Source of the DNA: an uncultured Pelagibacteraceae bacterium
GTDB taxonomy: Bacteria > Pseudomonadota > Alphaproteobacteria > Pelagibacterales > Pelagibacteraceae
Assembly (NCBI GenBank): GCA_902611175.1
Contig: CACLYQ010000001.1
Coordinates: 30,102 to 94,101 of the forward strand
DNA length: 64,000 nucleotides
Direction of reading: 5' to 3'
A program made the position numbers and the translations under genes. The notes beneath the pieces were generated by a model. It saw nothing but the letters and a program-made list of their open reading frames with translations. It had not been told where the DNA came from and searched no databases. Of the stretch, positions 15,940 through 31,893 are shown one piece after another; the stretch's first letter is position 1, and each line of letters begins with the position of its first letter.

Positions 15940-16587
15940 ATGATAAAAAAAATAAAACCATCGCTATCTGAAAAAATATTATTTATTTTTCTAATTCTAC
16001 TTATTATTTTAACTTTATCTTCATTTTATATATTAAATAATAAATGTCTTTTTGTAAAAAAAATTGATTTAAATAATATTGATTTTAAAGATAAGCAGAA
16101 TATTGCAATTATGGAAGTTGAATGCGGTAACGTTCTAATAGAATTAGATCCTAAAATTGCACCTAAAGCTGTAAATCGATTTAAGAAGTTAATAAATAGA
16201 GGTTCCTATAATGGTTCAACTTTTTATCGAGTAATAGAAAATACTTTAATACAAGCTGGAGATATTGAATATGGAAATGTATCTAATCTAAATTATTCTA
16301 AAGTAGGAACTGGTAAGTCTGGTTTAGGAACAATTAAATCTGAGCTTAGTGATAATTTTTTATTTAATGCTGGTTCTATTGCTTTTGCTAGAAAAGAAAA
16401 GTTCGATACAGAAGATAGTGAATTTTTTATTACTTTAATTGATATTCCAATATATCAAGGCGAATATACTCCAATTGGAAGAGTAATTGCAGGGATGGAC
16501 TCTTTAAAAAAAATTAAAGCGGGAAATAAATCAACCTATGTATTAAAACCTGATTATATTAAAAGTCTAAAGTTATTAGTTAACTAG
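15940..16587 (+). CDS. Membrane-anchored cyclophilin-type peptidyl-prolyl isomerase
   Basis: N-terminal TM; APKAVNRF, FYRVI, IQAGD, SEFFI, YTPIGRVIAGM. Confidence 0.85.
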   Translation: MIKKIKPSLSEKILFIFLILLIILTLSSFYILNNKCLFVKKIDLNNIDFKDKQNIAIMEVECGNVLIELDPKIAPKAVNRFKKLINRGSYNGSTFYRVIENTLIQAGDIEYGNVSNLNYSKVGTGKSGLGTIKSELSDNFLFNAGSIAFARKEKFDTEDSEFFITLIDIPIYQGEYTPIGRVIAGMDSLKKIKAGNKSTYVLKPDYIKSLKLLVN

Positions 16588-18798
16588 AGGTTTTCCAGTT
16601 GATAATGTGTGTTTAATTCTATCTTGGGTTTTACTTGTCTCAATTAATTTCATGAAAGCATCTAACTCTAATTTAAACAACTGATCTTCTGTAAGCGTTT
16701 TATCTATAGTTGTATCACCACCACTTAAAACATTTGCTAGCTCTGTTCCAACCATCATTCCATGATCTAATATAATTTTATCGTTATACAGTTTTTCTAA
16801 CATACCAACCATTTTGTCTTTTAAAGATTTGCCAGATAAATTAAATGTGCATTCTTTTGGAGGAGTAAATTCTTTATTTTGATCCAAAATTTTTCTAGCT
16901 TCATTTAATAAACTATTTCTGCTCATAATTTTTTTATTTTCAGGGATTAAATACTTTAGAGGTTCAGCTTCTACTGGAGATGTTGCAGTTTTTGCATAAC
17001 CAATGATATCAAAAACTTTTAAAGGTGCAAAATCTGGATCATTTTTTGCCTCGTCTGTTTGAGACCATCTCCATAACATTTCTTTACATCCTCCTCCAGC
17101 TGGAACTAAACCAACCAATGTTTCAACTAATCCAACAACAATATTTGTATGGGAAGCAACAAAGTTACTTTGAACTAAAACTTCAAAACCCCCTCCAAGC
17201 GTAAGACCTGATGGTGCTGAAACTACTGGAAATTTTGAGTATTTTAAGTGTTTGCATGTTTCTTGAAAATATCCGACAAATTTTTCAATTGATTTAAAGT
17301 CACTCTTATCTGCAAAATTCATAGTATATGTTAAATTAACTCCCGCAGAAAACTGCATACTTTCATTAATAATTATTAATGGTTTGTCAGTTGCATTTTT
17401 TAAAGAGTCCATCGAGTCATAATCTAAAGCGTTCGCTTTGGTTGTAAATTCGACAATGTTAAATTCAGGAAATCTATAAATTTCAGCAGAATTATTTTTA
17501 TCAAGTTTAAGGGCTCTTGGTTTAATTTTTCCTAAAGTTTCAATTTCTGTATATTGTTGTCTCTCACCATAAAAATTTTCATCTTTGGATTTTGATAAAT
17601 TTTCTAAAAATTTATTTCCCTCAAAATTGTCAATTTTTTGAAAAAAATTATTTACTCCAATTTCTTTTAACATTTCAAAAGGCCCTCTAGACCAATTGAA
17701 GCCAAGTCTCATTGCTTCATCAATGTCGTTAAATTTATCTGTAATGCCTGGAACTAATGAAGAAGAATATTTTATTATTTTAGAAATTACTGACCAAGCA
17801 TAATCACCGTATTTATCTCCACGATTAATTAATTTTTTTATATCAACTTTTTCAGATTTAATGTCTATTTTTTTTGAGGGAGAATATTCTCCAGTTTCAA
17901 GATTGATGGCCTCTAAAATTTTCTTACCACCCTCCTTATTCATTCTATAAAATCCACCTTTTCCTTTTCGACCAGTGTATCCAGTCTCTATTAATTTTTT
18001 CACAAGTGGCATTTCTCTTGCCACAGGTTGAAATGGATCACTTTCAGGTAACTCTTTAATAAAACTTTTCAATACATCTGCCATTAAATCGATACCAATT
18101 AGGTCATACAATCCAAATACTCCAGTTTTAGGTATACCCATTGGTCTGCCAAAGACAGCATCAGCCTCTTCTACACTAAGTTTCATATTAAATGCTTCGG
18201 TCATTGCAATTTGCATTGCGTAAACTCCAATTCTATTACCTAAAAATCCTGGAGTGTCATTACAGATAATTGCACCTTTACCTAAGTCTATTTCACAAAA
18301 GTCTTTTAAAAGTTTAACTTTATCTAAATCACTTTCATTACTTTTTACTATTTCAAGTAAATCCATGTATCTAACAGGATTAAAGAAGTGAGTTATGCAG
18401 AAATCCTTTTTGTCTTGATCAGATAATTTTTCTGATAGAACACTTATTGGAATAGATGAGGTATTAGATGAAACAACAGACTCTTTTTTTCTATGTTTAA
18501 AAATTTTTTCGTAAATATTATGTTTTATATCTATTCTTTCTACAACAGCTTCTACAATCCAATCTGCATTCGAAACCACATCAAAGTTTTCTTCAATGTT
18601 TCCTACATGTATATTATCTAATTTTGATTTATCTATTAACAATGGAGGTCTAGATTTTCCTATCCTCTCTTTAGCCTTTTGACTAATTTCTGTAGTTAAA
18701 TCCAACAAAGTAACAGGAACATTTGCGTTACATAAATGTGCAGCTATACCGCTCCCCATTGTTCCAGAACCAATTACAACTACGTTATTTATTTTCAT
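16576..18798 (-). CDS. 3-hydroxyacyl-CoA dehydrogenase / enoyl-CoA hydratase fusion (FadN type)
   Basis: GSGTMGSG, EAVVE, SSNTSS, HFFNPVRYM, DTPGFLGNR; C-terminal crotonase FSAGVNL, LGGGFE, GLVETLVGLVPAGGG. Confidence 0.92.
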   Translation of the reverse strand: MKINNVVVIGSGTMGSGIAAHLCNANVPVTLLDLTTEISQKAKERIGKSRPPLLIDKSKLDNIHVGNIEENFDVVSNADWIVEAVVERIDIKHNIYEKIFKHRKKESVVSSNTSSIPISVLSEKLSDQDKKDFCITHFFNPVRYMDLLEIVKSNESDLDKVKLLKDFCEIDLGKGAIICNDTPGFLGNRIGVYAMQIAMTEAFNMKLSVEEADAVFGRPMGIPKTGVFGLYDLIGIDLMADVLKSFIKELPESDPFQPVAREMPLVKKLIETGYTGRKGKGGFYRMNKEGGKKILEAINLETGEYSPSKKIDIKSEKVDIKKLINRGDKYGDYAWSVISKIIKYSSSLVPGITDKFNDIDEAMRLGFNWSRGPFEMLKEIGVNNFFQKIDNFEGNKFLENLSKSKDENFYGERQQYTEIETLGKIKPRALKLDKNNSAEIYRFPEFNIVEFTTKANALDYDSMDSLKNATDKPLIIINESMQFSAGVNLTYTMNFADKSDFKSIEKFVGYFQETCKHLKYSKFPVVSAPSGLTLGGGFEVLVQSNFVASHTNIVVGLVETLVGLVPAGGGCKEMLWRWSQTDEAKNDPDFAPLKVFDIIGYAKTATSPVEAEPLKYLIPENKKIMSRNSLLNEARKILDQNKEFTPPKECTFNLSGKSLKDKMVGMLEKLYNDKIILDHGMMVGTELANVLSGGDTTIDKTLTEDQLFKLELDAFMKLIETSKTQDRIKHTLSTGKPLVN

Positions 18799-18855: not shown

Positions 18856-20883
18856 CTACTGCTGTAAACTTGCTAATTCATCAATATTAATATGACATCT
18901 AATAGCGTTACCATTTTCACCTATTTGCCATGGTGGAACCTCTAAATTACAAATATCGCCTATTTTCCTAGGGCATCTTCCTTGAAAAGAACAGCCTTTC
19001 TCAGGGGGGTTTTCCTCTACTATATCCTCAGCTACTAATTTTGGTTTAATATCTGGATCTGGTTCTAAAACAGCACCTAATAATACTTCAGTATAAGGAT
19101 GTGATGGAAATTTGTAGACATTTTGAGAAGGACCAATTTCACATAATCTTCCTTGATATAAAACTGCAACTCTATCACTAATTGCTCTAACAACAGCCAA
19201 ATCATGAGAAACAAATACATAGGTTGTTCCTAGATCTTCTTTTAATTGTTGTAATAAGTTTAAAACAGCTGCTTGAACCGAAACATCTAAAGCTGATGTA
19301 ACCTCATCGCACAAAATTATATCTGGCTTAGCAGCAAATGCTCTTGCAACTGCAACTCTTTGTTTCTCACCACCTGATAATTGTCTCGGGTATCTTGACA
19401 TATAAAATTCTCCTAACCTTACTTTTTTTAGTAGATCGATTATATTTTTTTTTAATTCTTCTCCTGATAAATTAAAATACAACTTTAAAGGTTGAGAAAG
19501 TATTTGCTCGACAGTGTGGTTTGGATTTAATGACTCGTCCGGATTTTGAAATATGAGTTGTATTGCTCGCAGATCATTTGGATTTCTCATTTTTAAATCA
19601 GAAGATAATATACGATCATTTTCAAATTTAATTTGACCATCTTTTGTTTTGAGCAAACCAGCAATTGATTTTAAGATAGTAGATTTACCACTTCCAGACT
19701 CACCAACCAGTGCAATAGTCTCTCCTTTTTTTATATCTATATTTATATCTTTAACTGTTGGGTTTTGATCAGAGATTTTATTTAATAATTGATCAAAAAA
19801 TTTCTGCTTTGCATAACTAATTGAAACATCCTTTAATTTTAAAACTTCAATTGCTTCACTATTATTTGATTTTTTTTTTATTGAAGTTTTCAAATTAATA
19901 TTTTGGCTTATTAATTCTTTATGATTAAAACATCTGACATTTGTATCTAATTCTTTAATATGTTCTAGATCTGGTGAATTTTTTTTACAATGATCAGTTG
20001 CTAAGTTACATCTATCATAAAAACTACAACCTTGATTTATGCTTCCAGGCTGAGGTTGGCTTCCTGGCATAGAAGCTGGAAGTCCAGCTAGTGAAAGTTT
20101 AGGTATCGATTTTAACAATCCATAAGTATATGGATGAATAGGTTCCTTTAATATTTTTCTTGCTGGTCCTTCTAAAACAATTTCTCCCGCATACATTACA
20201 ACTATTCTATCACTGACTTGTGCTATGGCTCCAAGGTCATGACTAACATAGATCATAGATGTTCCAGTATCTTTTGCTATAAATCTTAATAGTTCTAATA
20301 CATGCGCTTGTGTTGTAACATCTAATCCAGTAGTTGGCTCATCTAATAAAAGTAAATCTGGTTTGCCAGCCAATGCCATCGCAACAGCAACTCTTTGTTG
20401 CTGCCCTCCAGAAAGCTCGTGTGGATAACGAAAAGCCATAGTTTCTGGTGAAGGAAGTCTAACTTTATTTAGTAACTCTGAAATTTTTTTATCTCTCTCT
20501 GTTTTGCTTAGATCTGTATGTAATCTTAATGCTTCATCAATTTGGTATCCAATTTTTAAATTCGGTGTTAATGCTTGTCCTGCATTTTGAGGTATCATCG
20601 CTATTTTTCTACCTCTAATTTTTTCTAGCTGTCTACTGCTCATCTTCAATAAATCCTCAGATTTAAAGAGACATTCACCCTTAAGAGGAAATAAGCCTTG
20701 TTTTATATAGCCCATCATAGCAAGTGCTAATGTGCTTTTTCCAGAACCCGACTCCCCTACGATCCCTACAGTCTCTCCTTTTTTAATGTTGGTTGAAACA
20801 TTTCTAAGTATTGAAATTTGTTTGCCCTTCTGACTGTTAAATCCAATTGATAAATTTTTAACACTTTCAATTATTTCAATCAT
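18856..20883 (-). CDS. Peptide/nickel-type ABC transporter, fused double ATPase (DppD/F-like)
   Basis: Two GESGSGKS Walker A, two LSGG signatures, two HPYT..C..C oligo-HPY domains. Confidence 0.93.
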   Translation of the reverse strand: MIEIIESVKNLSIGFNSQKGKQISILRNVSTNIKKGETVGIVGESGSGKSTLALAMMGYIKQGLFPLKGECLFKSEDLLKMSSRQLEKIRGRKIAMIPQNAGQALTPNLKIGYQIDEALRLHTDLSKTERDKKISELLNKVRLPSPETMAFRYPHELSGGQQQRVAVAMALAGKPDLLLLDEPTTGLDVTTQAHVLELLRFIAKDTGTSMIYVSHDLGAIAQVSDRIVVMYAGEIVLEGPARKILKEPIHPYTYGLLKSIPKLSLAGLPASMPGSQPQPGSINQGCSFYDRCNLATDHCKKNSPDLEHIKELDTNVRCFNHKELISQNINLKTSIKKKSNNSEAIEVLKLKDVSISYAKQKFFDQLLNKISDQNPTVKDINIDIKKGETIALVGESGSGKSTILKSIAGLLKTKDGQIKFENDRILSSDLKMRNPNDLRAIQLIFQNPDESLNPNHTVEQILSQPLKLYFNLSGEELKKNIIDLLKKVRLGEFYMSRYPRQLSGGEKQRVAVARAFAAKPDIILCDEVTSALDVSVQAAVLNLLQQLKEDLGTTYVFVSHDLAVVRAISDRVAVLYQGRLCEIGPSQNVYKFPSHPYTEVLLGAVLEPDPDIKPKLVAEDIVEENPPEKGCSFQGRCPRKIGDICNLEVPPWQIGENGNAIRCHINIDELASLQQ

Positions 20884-21777
20884 TTAAACTGGTGCCTTTG
20901 TTGAACGATCAATTCCTAAAGCTTTTGCAAACGCATCAGCAGTTAAATTTATTCCAATAATTAATGAACTTAATCCTACTATTGGAGCAATCACAGACCA
21001 GTATGCAAACGACATCAATCCTCTTGCATTGGAGATCATCAAGCCCCAATCAGGTGTTGGAGGACTTACACCAAAACCTAAGAATGACAATGAGCTAAAT
21101 CCTAATAACATCCAAGACCATCTCATTGCACCTTCTACTAATATAGCGTCTCTAACATTTGGAATAATTTCATTCCAAATAATAGACATGTTGCTATGAC
21201 CTCTTGCTCTGGCTGAAACTATAAAATCTTTAGCAATAACATCATGAGTAGCAGCTCTAGCAACCCTTACTATTCCTTTGCCATAAAAAAAACCTAGTGC
21301 AGGAATTAAAACCTCTGTTGATGTTCCTAAAAGAGAAACAATTAATAGCATTGCAAGTATCCAAGGGATAGAAAGAAACGCATCAACAACTCTCATTACA
21401 ACATCGTCAATTTTACCTCCAACTAACCCACAAAAAATTCCAAGTAAACCTCCCCAAAGAAGAGCTATGAGCGATCCAAAGAAAGTTACTGTGAGAGCTG
21501 TTCGCCCTCCAAGTATTGTTCTTGTGAAAACATCTCTACCCAAGCTATCTGTTCCAAACCAATGTTCAGCTGAAGGTGCAAGTAACATAGTATTTGGGCT
21601 AATTGCTTTATAATCGTACGGTGCAATGTAGGGGCTTATTAATGCTAAGACCACATGAAATAAAACAATTGTTAGACCAATTAGTCCAGAAGGCTTAGAG
21701 GCCATAGTTTTTAAAATCTCAAAAGTCTTTTCTAGCTTATTTTTTTGTTTATCTTCTGAAATTAAATTACTCTGCAT
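20884..21777 (-). CDS. Peptide-type ABC permease (DppC-like)
   Basis: HWFGTDSLGRD, EAA-like FIVSARARG, LSFLGFG..PPTPDWG. Confidence 0.92.
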   Translation of the reverse strand: MQSNLISEDKQKNKLEKTFEILKTMASKPSGLIGLTIVLFHVVLALISPYIAPYDYKAISPNTMLLAPSAEHWFGTDSLGRDVFTRTILGGRTALTVTFFGSLIALLWGGLLGIFCGLVGGKIDDVVMRVVDAFLSIPWILAMLLIVSLLGTSTEVLIPALGFFYGKGIVRVARAATHDVIAKDFIVSARARGHSNMSIIWNEIIPNVRDAILVEGAMRWSWMLLGFSSLSFLGFGVSPPTPDWGLMISNARGLMSFAYWSVIAPIVGLSSLIIGINLTADAFAKALGIDRSTKAPV

Positions 21778-21778
21778 T

Positions 21779-22735
21779 TTATTTTCGTATCTGTAGACTT
21801 TTTAATCTTGGGTTAAGCATGAGCGTCATTAAATCTGCTATTAAATTTATTCCCACATAGATTGATGCCAATATTATTGCTAATGCTTGAACAACTGGTA
21901 AATCTCTATTCGATATAGACTCAATTACTAATCTACCTAAACCTGGATAATTAAAAACAACTTCTGTAACAACTACACCACCTAGTAACCAAGCAATTGT
22001 TAATGCTACTACATTTATTGCTGGTAATAATGCATTTGGTAATACATGTCTAAATACCATTTTCCAATACGGTACACCTTTTAAAATTGCCATTTGCACA
22101 TAATCACTTGCCATAACTTGAATTACACTTGAGCGGACCATTCTTGCCATGTGTGCAGTCATAATCATTGAAATTGCTACAACAGGTAAAATTATATTTG
22201 AGAGTAATTCATAAAAAGTTGCATCAGATGGTATAATCACAATTCCTGGTAGCCAACCAAGCCAAATTGCAACAATTAAAATAAGCAAAGTAGCACTAAT
22301 AAACTCAGGAATAGTCATCGAAAAAATTGTGATAGTTGAAATCATAATATCTGGAAGCTTATCTCTCCAAAGAGCAGTTATTATTCCTAATACGATTGCT
22401 AGAGGAATTCCTATAAGTATTGAAACAGAGGCTAAAACTAAAGAGTTTTTAACTCTTGGACCTAATACTTCATTAATTGGCATTTCTCCACTTAAAGAGT
22501 AACCAAAATCACCTCGTACAACATTTGATGCCCAGTCTAAGTATCTTTCATAAGCAGGAACATCTAGACCAAGTCTTTTTATGCAAGCATCAAGAGCTGA
22601 TCCATAAGCTTCTCTTTCTAAATATGTTGTGCATGCATCCCCAGGTAAAACTTCAACACCTACAAATGTAATCAATGAGACTATAAATAAAGTAATAAGC
22701 CCTAGTCCAATTCTTTTTAAAATTAATAAAAGCAT
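21779..22735 (-). CDS. Peptide-type ABC permease (DppB-like)
   Basis: LPGD, GDFGYS, DYVQMAILKG, HVLPNA, EVVFNYPGLG, RDLPVVQ. Confidence 0.92.
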   Translation of the reverse strand: MLLLILKRIGLGLITLFIVSLITFVGVEVLPGDACTTYLEREAYGSALDACIKRLGLDVPAYERYLDWASNVVRGDFGYSLSGEMPINEVLGPRVKNSLVLASVSILIGIPLAIVLGIITALWRDKLPDIMISTITIFSMTIPEFISATLLILIVAIWLGWLPGIVIIPSDATFYELLSNIILPVVAISMIMTAHMARMVRSSVIQVMASDYVQMAILKGVPYWKMVFRHVLPNALLPAINVVALTIAWLLGGVVVTEVVFNYPGLGRLVIESISNRDLPVVQALAIILASIYVGINLIADLMTLMLNPRLKSLQIRK

Positions 22736-22782
22736 AAGATTAACTAGAACTTTTTAACAAAAATAAATTAAATAGAAATAAA

Positions 22783-22810
22783 ATAAAGGCCGCTTATATG
22801 CGGCCTTTAT
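22783..22810 (-). terminator. Hairpin downstream of the family-5 SBP gene (intrinsic terminator / mRNA stabiliser)
   Basis: ATAAAGGCCGC-ttatat-GCGGCCTTTAT, perfect 11-bp stem; U-rich tail on the minus strand. Confidence 0.8.
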
Positions 22811-22820
22811 CTAAATACTT

Positions 22821-24308
22821 TTAGTCAACTTTAACTTTGTGCCACTGTATAGAAAAGTGATCTACAGCATCAAGGTTTTTAACTTTTGACGAAGTAACTA
22901 CAAGTCTAGACACATGGTATGGGATCATTGTTCCACTTTGTTCCCATAAAGTCATTTGAGCATTTTGATAAGCTTTCTTTCTTTTATTGAAATCCAACTC
23001 ACTTCTAGCATCAGCTAAATTTTTATCAAAATCAGCGTTTTTGAAGTAAGACTCATTCCATTTAGCTCCACTATGATAAGCTTCATGCAAGATTGTGTCT
23101 GCTGGTCTTTGGTTCCAACGTGTCATTGAAACTGGTTTTTTCATCCATACTTCATTCCAATAACCTTTAGATGGTACCATTTCAATGTTAACTTTAATTC
23201 CAGCTTTTGCAACTTGTTGCTGAACAACTTCTGCAATCGTAGGCCAAGTTGGTTCTAAAGTTGCTGGATAAACAGTCAATTCAATTCCATTTGGAAATCC
23301 CGCTTCTCTTAGTAAATTTTTTGCTTTACTAATATTTTGAGGACAATCCATCTGTAAACGATATTGATCAGAAGGCATTACAGGCGTATCGCAAGATACA
23401 GTTGCTGCTCCACCCATAACCAGATCTACAAGTTCTTGTCTATCAACTGCTAACCTAAAAGCTTTTCTCACTTTAGGATTATCAAATGGAGCAGTATCAG
23501 TTCTCATAACCACACCTCTCCAATTTCCTGTTGGAATTACAGTTGTTGTAAATTTTGAATTACTGTCAAATATCTTTTTTTGATTGAAAGGAACATATCT
23601 ATTCATATCAATTTGACCCGTTAAAAGAGCTTGAATTCTTGCTTGAGCATCTGGGATAGCGATAACATGAACTTCGGCAACTCCAGGTGCACCTTCCCAA
23701 TAATCTGGGTTAGCTTTTAGAATTGTAGTTCCTTCTGGATCAAATTTATCAACTATAAATGGTCCAGTACCAACTCCAGTTTGTCCTATAGTATCTCCTG
23801 ATCCTTCAGGTATCATTCTTAATCTGTAGTCAGTTAATAATAATGGAAAGTCAGCAAACGAAGTTGATAACTTCATTTTAACAGTATGCTGATCAACTAC
23901 CTCAATGTCCTCAACTACATTTAAACTTTTTCTAACTGGAGATCCGATGTCGGGATCTTTAGCTCTCATTAGAGAATATTTTACATCTGGAGCATCAAAT
24001 GCTGATCCATCATGGAAATATATTCCTTTTCTTAAATTAAATGTCCATTCAGTTGCATCAGAATTAGCACTCCAATCTGTTGATAATGATGGTGATGGAA
24101 CACCTTTCATATCAGGCCTAACTAATCTATTTTGTGTTTTGATGACAACTTGAAATAAACGCCCTTTTGTTATGGCATCTAAGTTAGTATCTTTTCCAAA
24201 TCCAAGATCATGTGATACTTTAAATACTCCACTTGATGCATTGGCAATAGAAAAAGATAATATCAGAGACATAAAAGTCGCTGAAAAAACTTTAAGTATG
24301 TATTTCAT
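22821..24308 (-). CDS. Family-5 (Dpp/Opp/Nik-like) ABC substrate-binding protein
   Basis: Signal peptide; WTFNLRKGIYFHDGS, GTGPF, NPDYW, PFDNPKVRKA, WNES; SD-like AGAGGGA upstream. Confidence 0.92.
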   Translation of the reverse strand: MKYILKVFSATFMSLILSFSIANASSGVFKVSHDLGFGKDTNLDAITKGRLFQVVIKTQNRLVRPDMKGVPSPSLSTDWSANSDATEWTFNLRKGIYFHDGSAFDAPDVKYSLMRAKDPDIGSPVRKSLNVVEDIEVVDQHTVKMKLSTSFADFPLLLTDYRLRMIPEGSGDTIGQTGVGTGPFIVDKFDPEGTTILKANPDYWEGAPGVAEVHVIAIPDAQARIQALLTGQIDMNRYVPFNQKKIFDSNSKFTTTVIPTGNWRGVVMRTDTAPFDNPKVRKAFRLAVDRQELVDLVMGGAATVSCDTPVMPSDQYRLQMDCPQNISKAKNLLREAGFPNGIELTVYPATLEPTWPTIAEVVQQQVAKAGIKVNIEMVPSKGYWNEVWMKKPVSMTRWNQRPADTILHEAYHSGAKWNESYFKNADFDKNLADARSELDFNKRKKAYQNAQMTLWEQSGTMIPYHVSRLVVTSSKVKNLDAVDHFSIQWHKVKVD

Positions 24309-24449
24309 AAGTTCCCTCTTTTTCTTTAATTGTTTAAATAATCAAAAAGATAACAATTCCAGAACTAGATAACAACATGCAAAATGTAGTGATTCATCTA
24401 CTAATTGAATAGATATTTTAATTAATATACACTTTTTCTAAATTTATAA

Positions 24450-25673
24450 ATGCAAAACGAATTAAACAAAGTCAGATTTTCTGTAAAACCTTTAAAATCC
24501 AATGATAATAAAGTTGTTGAGCTTGCACGAACTGTCGGGATACATCCTCTAGCATATCAAGAACTTCCCTACGATCCTGAGTATTCATTTTATGCAGGAA
24601 GATTAAATCCAGAAGTACTTTCACATGCCACAGCTGATGAAATGTATTGGAAAGTAAGACAAGAAGTAATTTTTCGTCATACTGGTGAACATCCATATGA
24701 AATTTCTGGTCCAGATTCAGAAAAACTTTTACAAAAAATATTCACAAGAGATATCTCAAAAGTAAATGTAGGAAGATGCTCGTACCAATTTGCTTGTTAC
24801 AATGATGGAGGTATGCTGACAGATGGAGTTTTACTAAAACTTGAAGAAAATAAATTTTGGTTTGTTCAAGCTGATGGTGATCTTTTTTCGTGGTATAAAG
24901 CTCACACTGATAATCTTAATGTAAAAATTTCGGACCCAGACGTTTGGGTAAGTCAAATCCAGGGACCAAAATCTATGGATCTTTTAAAAGTTTTAAGTAA
25001 AGAGACTTTTCCTTATAATTGGAAATATTTTGATTGGAAAGAAATTACTATACTAAATGAAAAAGTAATCATAAGTAGATCAGGATTTAGCAATGAACTT
25101 GGTTGGGAAATTTATTTTAGAAAAAATAATAATACTGAAAAAGTTGGGGATCATATACTTGAAGAAGGAAGAAAAATGGGAATGATACTCACAGGTACCC
25201 CTGGTTTCAGATGTAAAAGAATAGAATCTGGATTATTATCAGCTGGGCAAGACTTTAATCATGAAACAAATCCATATGATGTTGGTTTGGGTAAGTATGT
25301 CGATTTAAAAAAAAATTATTTTATTGGAAAATCAGCTTTGATGACTGCTGATAAAGAAAAAAGATGTTGGGGAATAAGAGTAGAAAATGGAACAGGTTTA
25401 AAAGGAACTTACATAAAATTTAATAATGAAATAATTGGAAAAATTACATCAAGTACTTGGTCACCTTTTCAAAAATGTGGCGTTGGAATAGTTTTAATGA
25501 ATTCTACAAAATACAAACCAGGATTAATAGTAGATGTTAATTGCAATGATAATAAAATTCATAAAGGTGAGATATGCACCTTACCAATGTATGACTTTAA
25601 AAATGAAATTGTAAGAGGTTTAAAAATCGATATTCCAACAGGTCCTTCGCCGTGGTCAGGAATAAAAAAATAA
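24450..25673 (+). CDS. Divergent GcvT/DmdA-family THF-dependent aminomethyl/methyltransferase
   Basis: EISGPD, GGMLTDGVLLKL, QIQGPKS, SRSGFSNELGWEIY, RIESGLLSAGQDF, FIGKSAL; atypical N-terminus. Confidence 0.85.
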   Translation: MQNELNKVRFSVKPLKSNDNKVVELARTVGIHPLAYQELPYDPEYSFYAGRLNPEVLSHATADEMYWKVRQEVIFRHTGEHPYEISGPDSEKLLQKIFTRDISKVNVGRCSYQFACYNDGGMLTDGVLLKLEENKFWFVQADGDLFSWYKAHTDNLNVKISDPDVWVSQIQGPKSMDLLKVLSKETFPYNWKYFDWKEITILNEKVIISRSGFSNELGWEIYFRKNNNTEKVGDHILEEGRKMGMILTGTPGFRCKRIESGLLSAGQDFNHETNPYDVGLGKYVDLKKNYFIGKSALMTADKEKRCWGIRVENGTGLKGTYIKFNNEIIGKITSSTWSPFQKCGVGIVLMNSTKYKPGLIVDVNCNDNKIHKGEICTLPMYDFKNEIVRGLKIDIPTGPSPWSGIKK

Positions 25674-26347
25674 TAATAGCAATTGGTGGTGGTGGATTTA
25701 CACATTCTTCAGATGAAGACTTGGATGAATTTATTATAAATCAAGTTAATAAATCAAAAATCAAAATCGGTTTTTTACCTACAGCTAGCAATGATAATCA
25801 AGAAAAGATCAATCTTTTTTATAAAAGATTTAAATCACAAAAATTTAAATTATCTCATTTTAATCTTTGTTCAAGTGTGGAAGGTTTTAATGAATGGCTG
25901 TTAAACAAAGATATAGTTTATGTAGGAGGTGGTAATACCTCTGAAATGATTAATATTTGGAAAAGACATAATCTTATCAAAGTATTTAAAGATGCCTATG
26001 AAAAAGGAATAATTCTGAGTGGAATAAGTGCAGGAGCTGTCTGTTGGTTTGATTGGATATTATCAGACTCAGTCAATAAAGAGCTAAGTCCATTAAAAGG
26101 AATAAATTTTTTAGAGGGAAGTTGCACACCGCATTCTTCAGATAATAATCGAATTCGACAATTTATTTCAGAAATTAAAGATGGAAATTTACCCGATGGA
26201 ATAGCTATTGATGATGGTGTAGCTGTGCTTTTTATTGACGGAGTTCCTTCAGAGGTTTATTCTTCAAGAATTAATCATGACGCTTATTATGTGACTAGAC
26301 ATAATAAGATAAGTTTAAAAACATATATTAAAAATTTAAATGGATAA
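25652..26347 (+). CDS. Peptidase E / cyanophycinase-like S51 hydrolase
   Basis: AIGGGGF, FLPTAS, YVGGGNT, nucleophile GISAGA, catalytic His CTPH, AIDDG. Confidence 0.85.
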   Translation: MVRNKKIIIAIGGGGFTHSSDEDLDEFIINQVNKSKIKIGFLPTASNDNQEKINLFYKRFKSQKFKLSHFNLCSSVEGFNEWLLNKDIVYVGGGNTSEMINIWKRHNLIKVFKDAYEKGIILSGISAGAVCWFDWILSDSVNKELSPLKGINFLEGSCTPHSSDNNRIRQFISEIKDGNLPDGIAIDDGVAVLFIDGVPSEVYSSRINHDAYYVTRHNKISLKTYIKNLNG

Positions 26348-27500
26348 CATTAAAGCCAGTAAAAAAATTTTTAGCATTGAAGACGCAAAAAAACTATCAA
26401 AGAAAAGATTACCAAAGATAGTTTACGATTTTATTGACGGTGCATCAGGAGATGAAAAATTATCAGAAATTAATAGTTTTGCTTTAGACCAAATACGTCT
26501 TGAGCCAAGAGTTCTAAGAAATGTAGAGGAAAGAAAACTAAAAAAAAATATTCTTGGATTTAACTATGACTATCCTTTTGGATTTGCACCAATGGGTATG
26601 ACAAATCTTTCTTGGCCGGGCGCAGACTCAATGCTGGCAAAAGAGAGTGCAAGAAATAATATACCAACTTCTGTATCGATGGCTTCCACAACTACTCTGG
26701 AAAAAATGTATGAACTTTCAGAAGGTCATTCATGGCTTCAACTTTATATTTTTCAGGATGAAGCTTTTGTCATGGAATTGCTCGATAGAGCAGAAAAAAC
26801 TGGTTATGAGGTAGCTATACTTACCGTTGATGTTCCAGTTTTATCGAGAAGAACTAGAGATGATAAAAATGGCTTTTCTTATCCATTTAAAATCGGACCT
26901 AAACAATTTTTTGATTTTGCAACTCATCCTATTTGGTCAATATCTACATTACTTAATGGAATACCAAAGCCAATGAATTATGAAACTTCAAAAAGTGGAA
27001 AAGGTATTTTTAAAAGAAAAGAAAGTAGAGGAAAAACAGATTGGGAAACTTTAAAAAGAGTAAGAAATAAGTGGAAAGGAAAATTAATAGTAAAAGGCGT
27101 CATGTCGTCAGATGATGCAGTTAAAATTAAAGAAATGGGTGCTGATGCCATACAAGTTTCAAATCACGGAGGTAGACAATTAGATAGTGCCTCAGCAGCA
27201 ATTAATATTTTACCTTTTATTAGAGAAGCAGTAGGAAATAATTTTCCAATTATATTTGATAGTGGAATAAGAAGCGGTAGTGATATTGTAAGATCATTAG
27301 CTTTAGGAGCAGATTTTTCAATGATTGGAAGACCTGTAATGTATGCAATGGGAGCTGACGGAGCAAGCGGGTTAAGAAGAATTGTAGATATAATTAAAGA
27401 AGAAACAAGCACAACGTTAGGTTTGGTTGGATTAAATGATATTAATGAGGTTTCTTCTGATATAATTGAACAGAAACTTTTTATGAATACAACTTACTAA
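26340..27500 (+). CDS. FMN-dependent alpha-hydroxy acid oxidase/dehydrogenase
   Basis: YDFIDGA, APMG, WLQLY, LTVDVP, VKGV, SNHGGRQLD, DSGIRSGSD, GRP. Confidence 0.92.
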   Translation: MDNIKASKKIFSIEDAKKLSKKRLPKIVYDFIDGASGDEKLSEINSFALDQIRLEPRVLRNVEERKLKKNILGFNYDYPFGFAPMGMTNLSWPGADSMLAKESARNNIPTSVSMASTTTLEKMYELSEGHSWLQLYIFQDEAFVMELLDRAEKTGYEVAILTVDVPVLSRRTRDDKNGFSYPFKIGPKQFFDFATHPIWSISTLLNGIPKPMNYETSKSGKGIFKRKESRGKTDWETLKRVRNKWKGKLIVKGVMSSDDAVKIKEMGADAIQVSNHGGRQLDSASAAINILPFIREAVGNNFPIIFDSGIRSGSDIVRSLALGADFSMIGRPVMYAMGADGASGLRRIVDIIKEETSTTLGLVGLNDINEVSSDIIEQKLFMNTTY

Positions 27501-27501
27501 T

Positions 27502-29241
27502 ATGGAAAAAAAAATAAGAGGTGGAGCATTAATTGCAAGAGCATTAAAAGATAAAGGTATTAATAAAGTTTTTACTCTATCAGGTGGATTTTGTAATCCT
27601 GCAATTGAAGGTTTCATGGAATGTCAAATTGACGTAGTTAATTGTCCTCATGAACAAATAGCTGGACACTTAGCAGATGGACACACAAGAATTACAAGAA
27701 AACCATCTGTATGTTTAGTTGGACCTGAAGGTTTTGCAAATGCAGTACCATCAATGATGGAAGCATGGGGAGAAAGAACACCGATAATTTATATAACTGG
27801 ATCAAGTAGTTTAAAAAGACAAGGCTCAGGTGGCTTTAAAGAAATTGATGATGTTTCAATAGCTGCTCCTCTTACAAAATATAGCGCAAGCATTACAGAT
27901 GGAACAAGAATTAGAGAATTTGTTGATAAAGCTTACAGAATTGCAACGAATGGATATCCCGGGGCAGTTCATTTAAGTTTGCCAGTGGATATAATGTTTT
28001 CTTCATTTGAGGAAAATGTTGGACTTGAAGAAAGACCATTTTCACATAAAGCAAAGCCAGTTGCAAAAGCATGGCCAGATCCAAATGCTCTATCAAAAAT
28101 ACTTGAGCTAGCATGTAATGCAAAAAAACCTGTCATAATTGGAGGACATGGTGTTTGGTGGTCAAACTCAGAAAAAAATTTAGAGAATGCGGGTGAAAGT
28201 TTAAATATTCCTGTTTTTAATGTGCCATACCATCAAAAACTTTTGGGAGAAGAGGCAAATGCATATATGGGTTTAGCAGATATTCACCAATATCCACCCT
28301 CAGAATTTGCATTACATAACTCAGACTTAGTTTTAATGATTGGTGCAAGATTAGATAACCAAATGAATTTTGGTAACCCTCCTTTCATTCCAAAAACATC
28401 AACTTTAGTTTGTATTAACGGTTCCCATGAAGAAATTGAGTTTAATAGAGCAGCTGATCATAACCTTTTATGTGATCCAGGAGTATTTTTAGATACTCTA
28501 TGTAATTTGAAGAAAAATAATAAATGGAATTTAGGAAATAGTTGGTTTCAAGATAATAAAAATAAAAAAAAAGATTGGGTAGATAAATCTTTAAATGAAT
28601 TAAAAATTGAAGCAAATAAAGCTAAAAAAAATGGTGGAAAAATTCATCCGCTGCAATTAGCGTTAGATGTTCAAGAAGCTATGGATGAGAAAGATTGGCT
28701 TGTAATTGATGGAGGAAATACTCATTTCTGGTCGGAGATCGCAATAAATTTAGCTGGTGCTCAAGGAAAAAAATTGGGTGGAATTTTACATCCTGGCACA
28801 TTTAGTATGCTGGGTGTTGGTGTATCATTTGCATTATCTGCAAAAAATGAAAACCCTAAATCGAACGTAATCTTAATTAGTGGAGATGGTGCATTTTTAT
28901 CTGGAGGCATGTCTATAGAGACTGCTTTTTTTGAAAAAAAACCAATCGTTGTTGTTATTGACAATAATGGTGGCTTAGCATCAATTGGGCAACAACAAGA
29001 AAGATTATTTGAGAGTGGAAAAAGAGTGGCAACAGACTTTAGAGATATACCTTTCCACAGTATATTTGAGGGCTTTGGGGGTCATGGAGAATTAGTAACG
29101 AAAAGAGAAGAATTAGGTCCAGCTTTAAAAAGAGCTATTGCAAGCGGTAAAACTGCTTGTGTAAATGTAAAAGCTAAACCTGTATTAAGTCCAATTGTTG
29201 CTGCTGTTGCTAGCAAAAGAGAGAAATCATCAATAGAGTAA
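27502..29241 (+). CDS. Thiamine-diphosphate-dependent enzyme (AHAS/2-hydroxyacyl-CoA lyase/decarboxylase superfamily)
   Basis: Catalytic HEQ, GAVHLSLPVD, IGARLD, DGGN, GTFSMLGVG, ThDP motif GDGA...NN. Confidence 0.88.
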   Translation: MEKKIRGGALIARALKDKGINKVFTLSGGFCNPAIEGFMECQIDVVNCPHEQIAGHLADGHTRITRKPSVCLVGPEGFANAVPSMMEAWGERTPIIYITGSSSLKRQGSGGFKEIDDVSIAAPLTKYSASITDGTRIREFVDKAYRIATNGYPGAVHLSLPVDIMFSSFEENVGLEERPFSHKAKPVAKAWPDPNALSKILELACNAKKPVIIGGHGVWWSNSEKNLENAGESLNIPVFNVPYHQKLLGEEANAYMGLADIHQYPPSEFALHNSDLVLMIGARLDNQMNFGNPPFIPKTSTLVCINGSHEEIEFNRAADHNLLCDPGVFLDTLCNLKKNNKWNLGNSWFQDNKNKKKDWVDKSLNELKIEANKAKKNGGKIHPLQLALDVQEAMDEKDWLVIDGGNTHFWSEIAINLAGAQGKKLGGILHPGTFSMLGVGVSFALSAKNENPKSNVILISGDGAFLSGGMSIETAFFEKKPIVVVIDNNGGLASIGQQQERLFESGKRVATDFRDIPFHSIFEGFGGHGELVTKREELGPALKRAIASGKTACVNVKAKPVLSPIVAAVASKREKSSIE

Positions 29242-29242
29242 A

Positions 29243-29578
29243 ATGGCAAAATTTAGCTCACATTTATTGAATGGTTCTGATGGAACTCATGCAAGTAACG
29301 TCAAAGTAAAGATTTATCAAATACAATCCTCAAAATTAAAAAAGCTTTTTTTGAATACAAAGACTGATGGAAATGGTAGGATTAATAAGTATTTCAATCT
29401 TAGCAAAAAAGATTGTAAATGCGATTATGAAATGATTTGTGATATTAAAAGATACTTTAAAAAGAAAAAAATTGTGGGTGAAATAGTCATAAAATTTAAA
29501 ATGACTGATAATAAAAAAAATTATCATTTGCCAATCATAATTTCTCCTAACAGCTATACAGTATGGTGGTCTAAATAA
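29243..29578 (+). CDS. Transthyretin-like protein (HIU hydrolase family, non-canonical C-terminus)
   Basis: SSHLLN, TDGNGR, YHLPIIISPNSY; ends WWSK instead of YRGS. Confidence 0.8.
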   Translation: MAKFSSHLLNGSDGTHASNVKVKIYQIQSSKLKKLFLNTKTDGNGRINKYFNLSKKDCKCDYEMICDIKRYFKKKKIVGEIVIKFKMTDNKKNYHLPIIISPNSYTVWWSK

Positions 29579-29581
29579 TAT

Positions 29582-30745
29582 ATGGCTTCGTTAATACAAA
29601 GTAAAATAAGCACAAAACTTAATATGTCTAGGAGAATAAGAAGAACTCCTTATACCAAAAGAGTTGAAGAGTGTGGTGTAACTGATTTTACTGTTGTAAA
29701 TCATATGCTTTTACCAAAAAGATTTCAGAAATCTGTTGAGGATGATTATTGGCATTTGAATGAACATGTTCAATTATGGGATGTGTCTTGTCAAAGACAA
29801 GTTCAGATATCAGGTCCAGATGCTAGCTTATTAGTACAAAAAATGACACCAAGATCATTAAAAAATATGGAAACTGGAAAATGTTTTTATATTCCTATGA
29901 TCGATGAAAATGCTGGAATGATAAATGATCCAGTATTGTTAAAGTTAGACGATGATATGTTTTGGATTTCTATAGCAGACTCTGATGTATTGCTTTGGGC
30001 AAAAGGTATTGCGGTTGGTTTAAATTTAAATGTGAGCATAACAGAACCGGATGTATATCCACTTGCAGTACAAGGTCCAAAGTCTGAAGATTTGATGGCA
30101 TCAATATTTGGAGAAGATATTAGAAAATTAAAATTTTTTAATTTTAGAATATTTGATTTTTTAGGAACTAAACAAGTTATTGCAAGATCGGGATATAGCA
30201 AACAAGATGGATTTGAGATATATTTTAAATGCTTTGAAGATTACTTTGATAAAAATGAAATGGGAGAAAGAATTTGGGATATAATATGGAAAGCAGGAAA
30301 AGAATTTAATATTGCTCCAGGATGCCCAAATTTAATTGACAGAATAGAAGCAGGATTAATGTCATATGGGAATGATTTTACAAAAGAAAATAATCCAATT
30401 GAATGTAACTTAGAAAAATATTGTAGTGACAAAAGCGATCATGATTTCATTGGAAAAAAAGCTTTAGATAATATTAAGAAACAAAGTGTAAAACAAAAAT
30501 TAAAAGGAGTATTATTTGATGGTGTAGATTGTCCCCCATGTTCAATTCCTTTTCCGCTATACTCAAAAGATAAGAAATTAATTGGTAAAATAACCTCAGG
30601 GATTTATTCTCCAAAATTCAAAAAAAATATTGGTTTATCCATGATTTTAAATGAATTTTGTAAAATTGGGTCAGAAGTTTTAGTACACACTCCAGATAAT
30701 AAATTAAGAAAAGGAATTGTGTCCTCTTTACCATTTTCAAAATAA
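29582..30745 (+). CDS. dmdA: DMSP demethylase-like protein (DmdA paralog)
   Basis: SRRIRRTPY, NHMLLP, HVQLWDV..RQV, NDPVLLKL, SIADSD, LAVQGPK, ARSG.SKQ, GCPNLI.RIE, SYGNDF, all DmdA-like; several pocket substitutions, so the substrate is uncertain. Confidence 0.75.
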   Translation: MASLIQSKISTKLNMSRRIRRTPYTKRVEECGVTDFTVVNHMLLPKRFQKSVEDDYWHLNEHVQLWDVSCQRQVQISGPDASLLVQKMTPRSLKNMETGKCFYIPMIDENAGMINDPVLLKLDDDMFWISIADSDVLLWAKGIAVGLNLNVSITEPDVYPLAVQGPKSEDLMASIFGEDIRKLKFFNFRIFDFLGTKQVIARSGYSKQDGFEIYFKCFEDYFDKNEMGERIWDIIWKAGKEFNIAPGCPNLIDRIEAGLMSYGNDFTKENNPIECNLEKYCSDKSDHDFIGKKALDNIKKQSVKQKLKGVLFDGVDCPPCSIPFPLYSKDKKLIGKITSGIYSPKFKKNIGLSMILNEFCKIGSEVLVHTPDNKLRKGIVSSLPFSK

Positions 30746-30768: not shown

Positions 30769-31893
30769 ATGAAAAGAGCAGTAATAGCAGGATATTCAAG
30801 ATCACCTTTTACTATGGCAAGAAAAGGTGAATTGATTGATGTTAAGCCTGTAAATATGTTTGCAGAAGTTGTTAAAAATCTTGTATCTAAAACTAAAGTA
30901 AATCCTGCTGATATAGAAGATATTGTTGTTGGGTGTGCTTTTCAGGTTGGAGAGCAGAGTTTTAATATTGGGAAACTCACAACATTTTTATCTGGAATGG
31001 AAATACATACATCTGGAATGACAGTTGATAGATGGTGTGGCTCATCTATGGAGGCTATTCACGTTGCAGCAGGTAAAATAGCAATGGGTGCAGGAAAAGT
31101 TTTCGTATGTGGAGGTGTTGAAAGTATGACTAGGGTTACAACTGGCTTTGAACCAATACCTTATCCTTACACAGATAAAGAAAATCCAAATGTCTATTTT
31201 TCAATGGGAATAACTGCTGAAAACGTTGCCAAGAGATATAAAATTTCAAGAACTGAACAACAAGAGTTTGCAATTCAAAGTCATCAAAAAGCTAATGAAG
31301 CTGAAGTTGATGGTAAATTTAAAAATGAAATAGTTGAAATTGCTGGTTGCACAAAAGATGGAAACATACGTCCAAAAAGTAATCAAGAAACTTTGGATGG
31401 TTTAAAACTTGCATTTGATCAAGAAGGAACTGTAACTGCAGCAACATCATCACCTCTTACCGACGGAGCAGCAGCAACATTGATATGTGAAGAAAGTTAT
31501 GCAAAAGAAAATGGATTAGAAATTTTAGGTAGAATTGTTGCAACTGGAGTAAAAGGTTGTGAACCTGATGTAATGGGACTTGGACCTATAGGAGCAACTA
31601 AAAAAGCATTAGAGAGAGCAAATTTATCAATTAATGATATCGATATTATAGAAATTAATGAAGCTTTTGCATCTCAATCAATTGCATGTTTAAAAGATCT
31701 TGGTGTCGATCAAAAAAAAGCTAATTTAGATGGTGGAGCTTTAGCACTGGGACACCCTCTAGGGGCAACAGGAGCGAGAATAACTGGCAAAGCTGCAGAT
31801 TTACTTAGACGTGAAAATAAGAAATATGCTTTATCTACTCAATGTATCGGTTTAGGTATGGGTATTGCAACAGTCATCGAGTCGGTAAATTAA
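30769..31893 (+). CDS. Acetyl-CoA C-acyltransferase (thiolase)
   Basis: DRWCGSS, GGVESM, DGAAA, EINEAFA, GHPLGATG, CIGLGMG. Confidence 0.95.
   Translation: MKRAVIAGYSRSPFTMARKGELIDVKPVNMFAEVVKNLVSKTKVNPADIEDIVVGCAFQVGEQSFNIGKLTTFLSGMEIHTSGMTVDRWCGSSMEAIHVAAGKIAMGAGKVFVCGGVESMTRVTTGFEPIPYPYTDKENPNVYFSMGITAENVAKRYKISRTEQQEFAIQSHQKANEAEVDGKFKNEIVEIAGCTKDGNIRPKSNQETLDGLKLAFDQEGTVTAATSSPLTDGAAATLICEESYAKENGLEILGRIVATGVKGCEPDVMGLGPIGATKKALERANLSINDIDIIEINEAFASQSIACLKDLGVDQKKANLDGGALALGHPLGATGARITGKAADLLRRENKKYALSTQCIGLGMGIATVIESVN

Follow-up and report, generated by a model that had tools for sequence, protein, structure and literature searches.

An accessory ten-gene insert of Pelagibacter carries a DmdA paralogue targeted by the dmdA C/2 primers and may serve the degradation of a methylated sulfonium acid

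The genes considered here lie in a 64,000-nt stretch of DNA (the window) from an uncultured Pelagibacteraceae bacterium (assembly GCA_902611175.1, 73% complete; contig CACLYQ010000001.1, positions 30,102 to 94,101). They form a block of ten genes, in which an ATP-binding cassette (ABC) importer with a family-5 solute-binding protein (SBP) is encoded divergently from six enzymes: a GcvT-family folate-binding enzyme (GcvT1), a serine hydrolase of peptidase family S51, a flavin mononucleotide (FMN) dependent 2-hydroxy-acid dehydrogenase, a thiamine diphosphate (ThDP) enzyme, a protein resembling 5-hydroxyisourate hydrolase (HIUase) and a paralogue of DmdA, the dimethylsulfoniopropionate (DMSP) demethylase (Table 1). 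A sequence-only reading of this DNA had described a four-gene transporter divergent from six tightly coupled enzyme genes, and this description holds. All ten open reading frames (ORFs) are intact in the ORF listing of the window, and the enzyme genes follow each other with gaps of -22, -8, +1, +1 and +3 nt. The same reading had noted the lack of a regulator. Neither the ORF list nor Pfam places one within the block, but LysR regulators adjoin its conserved core in many loci outside SAR11. No RNA element or riboswitch reached the Rfam gathering score in the window and seven related loci, and the five sub-threshold matches were at chance level. Families were assigned by Pfam and NCBIfam profile searches of the window proteins; among the six enzymes and the SBP, the last gene alone exceeds an NCBIfam cut-off.

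Table 1. Genes and other features of the ten-gene block and its flanks (window coordinates).
Feature	Coordinates	Strand	Remarks
Fused double ABC ATPase, Dpp/Opp type, 675 aa	18856..20883	-	PF00005 x2, PF08352; best NCBIfam NF008453
ABC permease, OppC type, 297 aa	20884..21777	-	PF00528, PF12911
ABC permease, OppB type, 318 aa	21779..22735	-	PF00528, PF19300
Family-5 SBP, 495 aa	22821..24308	-	PF00496; below every NCBIfam cut-off
Divergent intergenic region, 141 nt, between SBP and first enzyme gene	24309..24449		no known RNA element
GcvT-family folate-binding enzyme 1 (GcvT1), 407 aa	24450..25673	+	distant from DmdA
Peptidase S51-family serine hydrolase, 231 aa	25652..26347	+	PF03575
FMN (S)-2-hydroxy-acid dehydrogenase, MdlB/LldD type, 386 aa	26340..27500	+	PF01070
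ThDP enzyme, 579 aa, unnamed subfamily on the HACL/OXC/benzaldehyde-lyase branch	27502..29241	+	three TPP domains
Transthyretin/HIUase-like protein, 111 aa	29243..29578	+	PF00576; without YRGS tail
DmdA paralogue, 387 aa	29582..30745	+	NF009133; target of dmdA C/2 qPCR primers
Left flank, outside the insert: FadN-like 3-hydroxyacyl-CoA dehydrogenase	16576..18798	-	domain search; adjoins thiolase in four empty-site genomes
Right flank, outside the insert: thiolase	30769..31893	+	domain search

The last gene ties the block to a widely used ocean marker. It scores 526.8 bits on the NCBIfam DmdA model, where the cut-off is 410 and the canonical copy of the same genome reaches 573.9. A canonical dmdA-dmdB-dmdC locus is present elsewhere in the genome, with dmdA on contig C2 next to genes for an acyl-CoA dehydrogenase and an AMP ligase; the cassette gene is an extra copy, 48% identical to the canonical DmdA. 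The primers 291F/482R for dmdA subclade C/2 (sequences from Table 1 of PMC10076866) fit the cassette copy with one and zero mismatches at sites 29902 and 30071, giving a 192-bp product where about 191 bp is expected, compared with four and eight mismatches on the canonical copy.

We aligned 45 dereplicated cassette-linked sequences with 18 canonical ones and five more distant paralogues. Only two columns proved to be fixed differently: Y32V and W197Y occur in all 45 cassette-linked sequences and in none of the 18 canonical ones, and the five more distant paralogues keep Y32 and W197. E63Q was dropped as a diagnostic residue, since Gln is also found in four of the 18 canonical sequences. S122, E204 and Y206 are retained in 45 of 45 cassette-linked paralogues, and R239 is kept as well. 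Passages of PMC7487153 name a Trp as key for the interaction with DMSP and describe the folate site; by numbering offset, the Trp probably corresponds to W197, and S122, E204 and Y206 would be folate-site residues. Y32 is a putative substrate-site residue, judging from its conservation. In a FastTree phylogeny the cassette paralogues branch outside the canonical DmdA clade and form its sister clade (joint support 0.98; canonical clade 0.92, cassette clade 0.67). Hoeflea sp. TYP-13 and one Hyphomicrobiales metagenome-assembled genome contain the cassette type and a 36% paralogue, with no closer canonical-type match. Phages gave no close match to the paralogue.

Within the genus, the ThDP gene is present in 20 of 90 genomes, and it was found in none of 60 genomes of the next family. 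Among the first 80 of the 90, the SBP occurs in 17 genomes, GcvT1 in 15 and the thiolase in 21. The C/2-type paralogue occurs in 16, exactly the 16 with the ThDP gene, and never without it among these 80. We give plain counts and no statistics, because the genomes are kin and mostly incomplete. Presence mismatches between cassette genes, where inspected, fall at contig ends (G010, G011, G033). In five of the 21 thiolase genomes no other cassette gene was found; in four of these relatives only 96-129 nt separate fadN from the thiolase, which faces it, and in the fifth the thiolase has other neighbours. The co-occurrence of the cassette genes and the empty fadN-thiolase site in four relatives indicate that gain or loss affects all ten genes at once, as one accessory insert. 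Since fadN and the thiolase face each other in four genomes that lack the insert, they are its flanks; the idea of a gonyol beta-oxidation with both as members of the pathway was dropped as far as membership of the insert is concerned, although the pathway may still draw on them. Gene order in the block repeats across Pelagibacter lineages with ThDP identities down to about 80%. Absent as a unit in four relatives and recurrent in its order, the arrangement exceeds chance. A horizontal origin is not indicated by composition, as the third-codon-position GC content (GC3) of the block, 0.155-0.241, lies inside the 0.11-0.25 of 40 other window genes.

It is possible, though unlikely, that the last gene encodes a true DMSP demethylase isoenzyme, which the FMN and ThDP enzymes feed or beside which they serve a separate compound. 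In the feeding version, 4-dimethylsulfonio-2-hydroxybutyrate (DMSHB) would be oxidised and decarboxylated to DMSP-aldehyde and then yield DMSP. The score on the DmdA model, the position as a sister of canonical DmdA and the kept folate-site residues would agree with this, as would an enoyl-CoA hydratase gene after the paralogue in loci L119-L121 and L216; in passages of PMC13360808 and PMC10076866, C/2 is counted as dmdA. It is opposed by the fixed exchange of two residues that every canonical sequence and even the more distant paralogues keep, by the coexistence of a canonical copy in this genome and in 12 of the 16 carriers, and by the strict association with the ThDP gene in the 80 genomes. 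The partners differ, too. In DMSP demethylation (DmdA-DmdB-DmdC-DmdD/AcuH of 'Ca. Pelagibacter ubique' HTCC1062, PDB 3TFH, and of Ruegeria pomeroyi) they are a CoA ligase and an acyl-CoA dehydrogenase, whereas here they are the FMN dehydrogenase, the ThDP enzyme and the HIUase-like protein, and the block is accessory rather than core.

For a view beyond the genus, we used the best 80 of 308 confirmed stretches from genomes (77 loci, mostly SAR11) and the best 80 of 460 from metagenomes (79 loci); the 120 matches listed in a protein search were all relatives at 99-100%. Partner genes were counted in 85 loci whose ThDP enzyme is at most 83% identical to that of the window, and lineages are the 34 ThDP clusters at 90% identity, including that of the window. 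Of 73 loci with sufficient flanking sequence, 72 have the HIUase-like gene directly after the ThDP gene, and it occurs in all 34 lineages; these two genes therefore form an invariant unit. The FMN gene precedes the ThDP gene in 54 of 75 loci (27 lineages), and a DmdA paralogue stands at the core in 56 of 65 (26 lineages). A 2-hydroxy-acid oxidoreductase and a demethylase are the usual partners, while transporters vary (family-5 ABC, tripartite ATP-independent periplasmic (TRAP) or TctABC systems), which is to be expected if the substrate is an organic acid. Another type of family-5 SBP is found in five lineages, the SBP type of the window with S51 in four, and GcvT1 in two. The ten genes thus consist of two modules, a core of three to four genes and a transporter/S51 module, and GcvT1 is an addition to the core on the SAR11 side.

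In three lineages, a GlcD-type FAD 2-hydroxy-acid oxidase stands in for the missing FMN enzyme, accompanied by a carboxylate importer of the TctABC type. They also lack the demethylase, which would fit uptake of an acid that is already demethylated. A variant gene cluster (L164, L166, L170, L172, L179, L188 and L189) combines TctABC, ThDP, HIUase-like and GlcD-type oxidase genes with TauD or LysE and has neither FMN enzyme nor demethylase; in view in L189 are only TauD, TctC, ThDP and HIUase-like genes. The core is rare: the ThDP gene was detected in 2 of 400 other genomes of the class, with only three candidates scored in each, the HIUase-like profile in 0 of 400 genomes of the phylum, and plasmids gave no ThDP match. 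Hoeflea sp. TYP-13 (L108) is a cultured carrier of the four-gene core. Two loci labelled Urechidicola (L098) and Acidimicrobiia (L103) share a 90% ThDP cluster with a gammaproteobacterial locus; misbinning or recent transfer are possible reasons for these labels, and we do not claim spread across phyla.

These distributions bear on whether the block has a common purpose at all. A patchwork of housekeeping genes without a shared substrate (lactate oxidation, acetolactate synthase, purine catabolism, peptide uptake) would explain why the transporter, S51 and GcvT1 are inconstant partners outside SAR11 and why members carry automatic names such as acetolactate synthase. We consider it highly improbable: the insert comes and goes as a unit, the ThDP and HIUase-like genes are nearly always adjacent, the FMN, ThDP, HIUase-like, S51 and SBP proteins stay below every equivalog cut-off, and two other FMN hydroxy-acid dehydrogenases are encoded elsewhere in the genome, on contig C2. 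Together with the canonical dmdA, these two enzymes speak against the case that was to refute the sequence-only reading, in which the block serves canonical DMSP demethylation or lactate oxidation, and the co-occurrence it had proposed to look for in other genomes is wide.

The FMN enzyme had been called an oxidase, but dehydrogenase fits better, because its top single-domain match in the PDB is 6bfg, a membrane-type (S)-mandelate dehydrogenase (E 3.5e-72), with which it aligns as a single domain. It shares the long insertion of that enzyme, which lactate oxidase lacks, and stays below the LldD cut-offs (265.5 vs 376 and 224.2 vs 550). The catalytic set Y136, R171, K252, H276 and R279 is invariant in 45 of 45 sequences. 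In 39 of them, the first active-site Tyr is replaced by Phe31, as in enzymes for bulkier acids. The mandelate pathway of Pseudomonas putida (MdlB-MdlC-MdlD) likewise pairs an FMN (S)-2-hydroxy-acid dehydrogenase of the membrane type with a ThDP enzyme that acts next. However, the ThDP enzyme here groups with HACL, OXC and benzaldehyde lyase (BAL), and benzoylformate decarboxylase is absent among the matches listed. There is no racemase and no conserved aldehyde dehydrogenase, and the demethylase and HIUase-like genes are extra.

The ThDP enzyme is 23-27% identical to the solved HACL, OXC and BAL folds listed (PDB 8VZA, 7PT1, 2Q27, 2AG0), which are its best sequence matches and share its fold (model pLDDT 83.7). 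It reaches no NCBIfam cut-off, the HACL and OXC scores being 239.7 vs 600 and 206.8 vs 557. Catalytic E51 and the cofactor motif G461-D462-G463, N488-N489 are invariant, as are K113 and E76 in predicted active-site loops. HACL and BAL have Gln in the place of Lys113, conservation is lacking at residues 282-292, where the HACL motif aligns, and there is no CoA ligase in the core. The window enzyme belongs to a Pelagibacter sub-lineage (with L032 and L034; 3 of 38 dereplicated sequences) that deviates from the otherwise near-invariant family in the loop after the cofactor motif (493-496), at 509-510 and in the C-terminal segment 560-562. The deviating loop and C-terminal segment may mark a shifted substrate.

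The HIUase-like protein had been called non-canonical, rightly so: it ends in WWSK, misses the TIGR02962 cut-off (72.1 vs 87.45), and the YRGS tail was found in none of 64 dereplicated sequences. It belongs to the transthyretin fold family like 5-hydroxyisourate hydrolase (PucM/UraH) and has His7, Arg46 and His95, which are catalytic in that enzyme. H7, H16, R46, Y94, H95 and W108 are invariant in 36 sequences; His16 and Trp108 are new relative to PucM/UraH. No uricase or 2-oxo-4-hydroxy-4-carboxy-5-ureidoimidazoline decarboxylase occurs among the recurring neighbours of the core. The ESM Atlas returned the HIUase family name alone.

In the transporter module, the SBP residues R50, R162, R264, R397, R401, W263, W355, W388, W398 and W417 are invariant among 13 homologues of at least 50% identity, and the predicted pocket is rich in Arg and Trp. 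The DppA score is 100 against a cut-off of 1005. Arg401 aligns to an Asp of HbpA/GsiB, which we take to be the residue that holds the peptide amine in peptide binders; this would speak against an ordinary peptide SBP, one of the cases that were to refute the sequence-only reading. The S51 hydrolase, which co-travels with the transporter, has S126, H161, D187 and D188 invariant in 24 of 24 sequences, stays far under the equivalog cut-offs for PepE (26.4 vs 156) and cyanophycinase (30.5 vs 126.6), and gave no match in the PDB. The sequence-only reading had counted two tetrahydrofolate methyltransferases. The second one is DmdA-like as described, but this identity is not borne out for GcvT1, which scores 205.7 against 410 bits on the DmdA model and is 33% identical to the DmdA paralogue. 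It lacks the Asp-Pro/Ser122/Trp197 signature, with Asp-Gly at 108-109, Ala or Val (depending on the alignment) at 122 and Phe197. Homologues at 53% identity are located on Phaeobacter and Tritonibacter plasmids. The one on Phaeobacter inhibens plasmid pP66_d (L219:14001-15209) is flanked by a LysR regulator and one of the GlxA family, with genes for an aldehyde dehydrogenase and a TRAP system nearby; Phaeobacter is a tractable host.

We could also observe genes of methyl-sulfur metabolism around the core. SBP56, of the methanethiol-oxidase family but below the MtoX cut-off, occurs in 7 of 34 lineages and MttB in 4; the SBP56 gene of the genome studied here is on contig C5. A homocysteine S-methyltransferase gene directly precedes GcvT1 in L088 and L216. 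The paralogue is followed by a DMSP-lyase-type cupin in one lineage and by a cystathionine/methionine gamma-lyase family gene in L191, and in L197 a canonical-type dmdA with an acyl-CoA synthetase gene lies beside the core.

The enzyme set and these sulfur-related neighbours suggest that a sulfonium 2-hydroxy acid is taken up, S-demethylated, oxidised and decarboxylated. That the block imports and degrades such a methylated acid other than DMSP has, in our estimate, about an even chance. The methyl donor would be an onium compound, because the last gene is a sister enzyme of DmdA, and a ThDP enzyme acting after an FMN or FAD hydroxy-acid dehydrogenase points to oxidation to a 2-oxo acid and C-C cleavage. 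Import would be by the family-5 ABC system; the compound may enter as a conjugate, an amide or ester, to be opened by the S51 hydrolase. One S-methyl group would then pass to tetrahydrofolate through the DmdA paralogue, the FMN dehydrogenase would oxidise the 2-hydroxy acid, the ThDP enzyme would decarboxylate or cleave the resulting 2-oxo acid, and the HIUase-like protein could hydrolyse or rearrange the product. The methylthio fragment may enter the methylmercaptopropionate/methanethiol route (dmdB/dmdC-like and SBP56 genes lie elsewhere in the genome), and GcvT1 might collect a second C1 unit. A methylated metabolite other than DMSP had been suggested before; DmdA kinship and neighbours favour a methyl-sulfur substrate, but a single fixed set of ten genes was not borne out.

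Several observations weigh against a sulfonium acid. The paralogue exceeds the equivalog cut-off for DmdA, and the cassette clade is weakly supported. In eight of the 34 lineages the core is seen without an adjacent DmdA paralogue, although some of these loci are incomplete. The same SBP family, at about 50% identity, occurs with unrelated neighbours in 4 of 400 class genomes that lack the core. SBP56 may have kept its place near the core through common descent, and no aldehyde dehydrogenase is a conserved partner among the recurring neighbours of the examined loci. Invariant K113 of the ThDP enzyme and several invariant Arg residues of the SBP would be as compatible with an additional anionic group as with a sulfonium. 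Moreover, this FMN family is L-specific, whereas algal DMSHB and its demethylated form 4-methylthio-2-hydroxybutyrate (MTHB) are D-configured, a configuration for which a literature search found no paper. DMSHB, an algal DMSP precursor according to passages of PMC5395565 and PMC13360808, had been put forward as the substrate. It (or MTHB) leads as a single candidate, but a doubtful one: neither the aldehyde dehydrogenase nor an aminotransferase is a conserved core partner, and the conflict of configurations adds to this, so that it is not singled out.

A shorter substrate is conceivable, too. Demethylation and hydroxylation of dimethylsulfonioacetate (DMSA) or a similar X-CH2-COOH compound would yield a glyoxylate thiohemiacetal, this would be oxidised to an oxalyl thioester, an OXC-like ThDP decarboxylation would give a formyl thioester, and the HIUase-like protein would hydrolyse this to methanethiol and formate. 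The closest solved relatives of the ThDP enzyme, HACL and oxalyl-CoA decarboxylases, are consistent with such a route. The interchange of FMN and GlcD-type enzymes fits an achiral or glycolate-like carbon in view of their stereo-preferences, and TauD-type dioxygenase genes flank the core in L170, L172, L179 and L189, with PhyH in L169. Passages of PMC7221440 report methanethiol from DMSA, cite the rejection of DMSA by DmdA and propose an unrecognised pathway. The block in the window, however, has no hydroxylase, Y32V and W197Y shrink side chains and would suit a larger substrate, and the HACL motif of the ThDP enzyme is not conserved. We therefore regard the route as quite improbable.

The sulfolactate pathway of Roseovarius nubinhibens (SlcHFG-SlcD-ComDE) combines a carboxylate importer, an FMN hydroxy-acid dehydrogenase and a ThDP decarboxylase. 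The logic is the same as here, and TctABC variants also occur among the core loci, but ComDE is split and of another ThDP family, and that pathway has no demethylase or HIUase-like gene. A substrate other than a sulfonium, either N-methylated or a hydroxy acid bearing a sulfonate, sulfate, phosphonate or arsenic group, might be handled in a similar manner. K113 and the Arg-rich SBP would suit it. Sulfatase genes adjoin the core in L095/L127 and L124, and a gene resembling the Ldh_2 ureidoglycolate/sulfolactate dehydrogenases is found in two lineages. Homologues of the SBP have PhnF as a neighbour in Sinorhizobium terangae (42.6%) and a radical SAM gene related to ArsL in G538 (53%), and GcvT1 homologues stand beside the GlxA-family regulator on the Phaeobacter plasmids. 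We nevertheless think it unlikely: among characterised enzymes, the demethylase is most closely related to an S-demethylase, the neighbours that suggest sulfatase, phosphonate or arsenic chemistry are isolated cases that do not recur, and the methyl-sulfur neighbours are more varied. Genome G538 has no core; in an IS-rich region it holds two copies of the SBP-family transporter (L227:3787-5178 and L228:11482-12873) adjoining the radical SAM gene, which has a CUAEP/CCAEP tail and is related to ArsL of arsinothricin synthesis. The arsenic lead was dropped, as it rests on this one genome.

For the sulfonium acid reading, the consequences concern the marker first of all. According to passages of PMC13360808 and PMC10076866, C/2 is one of the two most prevalent dmdA subclades, and its counts are used as DMSP-demethylation potential. 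In the genome studied here the C/2 primers target an additional copy that is tied to an uncharacterised operon, and C/2 counts may therefore partly measure another flux. Somewhat short of an even chance, we estimate, is the reading that the marker does not demethylate DMSP but stands for a pathway not described so far, in which a new ThDP subfamily and a repurposed transthyretin-fold hydrolase process another abundant sulfonium acid of algae. A field study (PMC7370799, in part of its text) assigns C/2 to a network module that the other dmdA subclades do not share, a pattern that agrees with a different function but could also reflect host ecotype alone. About a fifth of Pelagibacter species would tap a second source of reduced sulfur and methyl groups if this were true. 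Representatives of environmental dmdA clades were reportedly expressed and assayed by Howard et al. in 2011.

The sequence-only reading knew of no described pathway with this gene set, and our literature search found no description of it either; subscription papers may contain an earlier assay of a clade C protein. The block appears to encode a real, conserved and apparently undescribed pathway built from known folds. Passages of PMC7221440 state that bacteria degrade further sulfoniums, including DMSA and gonyol, by unidentified routes, and the block offers candidate genes for such catabolism. It also adds two enzyme subfamilies without solved or named members. Since Hoeflea sp. TYP-13 is a cultured carrier of the core, the question is directly testable.

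Contigs from four RNA libraries of four studies span 29-30 of 30 bins; such contigs do not show transcription. Their summed depth is highest over the SBP gene in three of the four runs, a measure that cannot rank genes.

Some loci depart from the usual arrangement. In one SAR11 genome (L089:8088-14546) the permease, the ATPase and fadN lie downstream of the thiolase in the orientation of the enzymes, which may be due to a rearrangement or to a single-cell chimera. Lineage-specific extras in or at the block are BioY, a family-3 SBP, a class IV aminotransferase after the thiolase and a TRAP system (L034:3684-4247, L039:9651-10205, L040:8618-9346, L039:16508-17386 and L113:14389-17200; the aminotransferase was typed in L089). 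The fadN and thiolase genes also occur close to the core loci L095, L127 and L132, which belong to one gammaproteobacterial lineage.

Further DmdA-like paralogues that keep Y32 and W197 were found outside SAR11 (L256:2953-4056, L235 and L238-L240), with 46% and 35-37% identity to the canonical copy. Another GcvT/DmdA-like gene of 451 aa (239.5 bits) on contig C5 of the source genome (G000:C5; L003:4166-5521, with L003:1161-3340 and G000:C5:38362-39702) is divergent from EgtD- and EgtB-like genes and lies about 6.5 kb from an SBP56 gene. Finally, positions 36435-62702 of the window form a dense neighbourhood of genes for methylated and compatible solutes, with DoeA/EutA-like genes, two homocysteine S-methyltransferases, a ProVWX-type transporter, a gamma-butyrobetaine dioxygenase-like and a carnitine dehydrogenase-like gene, a beta-keto acid cleavage enzyme, a choline dehydrogenase and two GFA-family genes.

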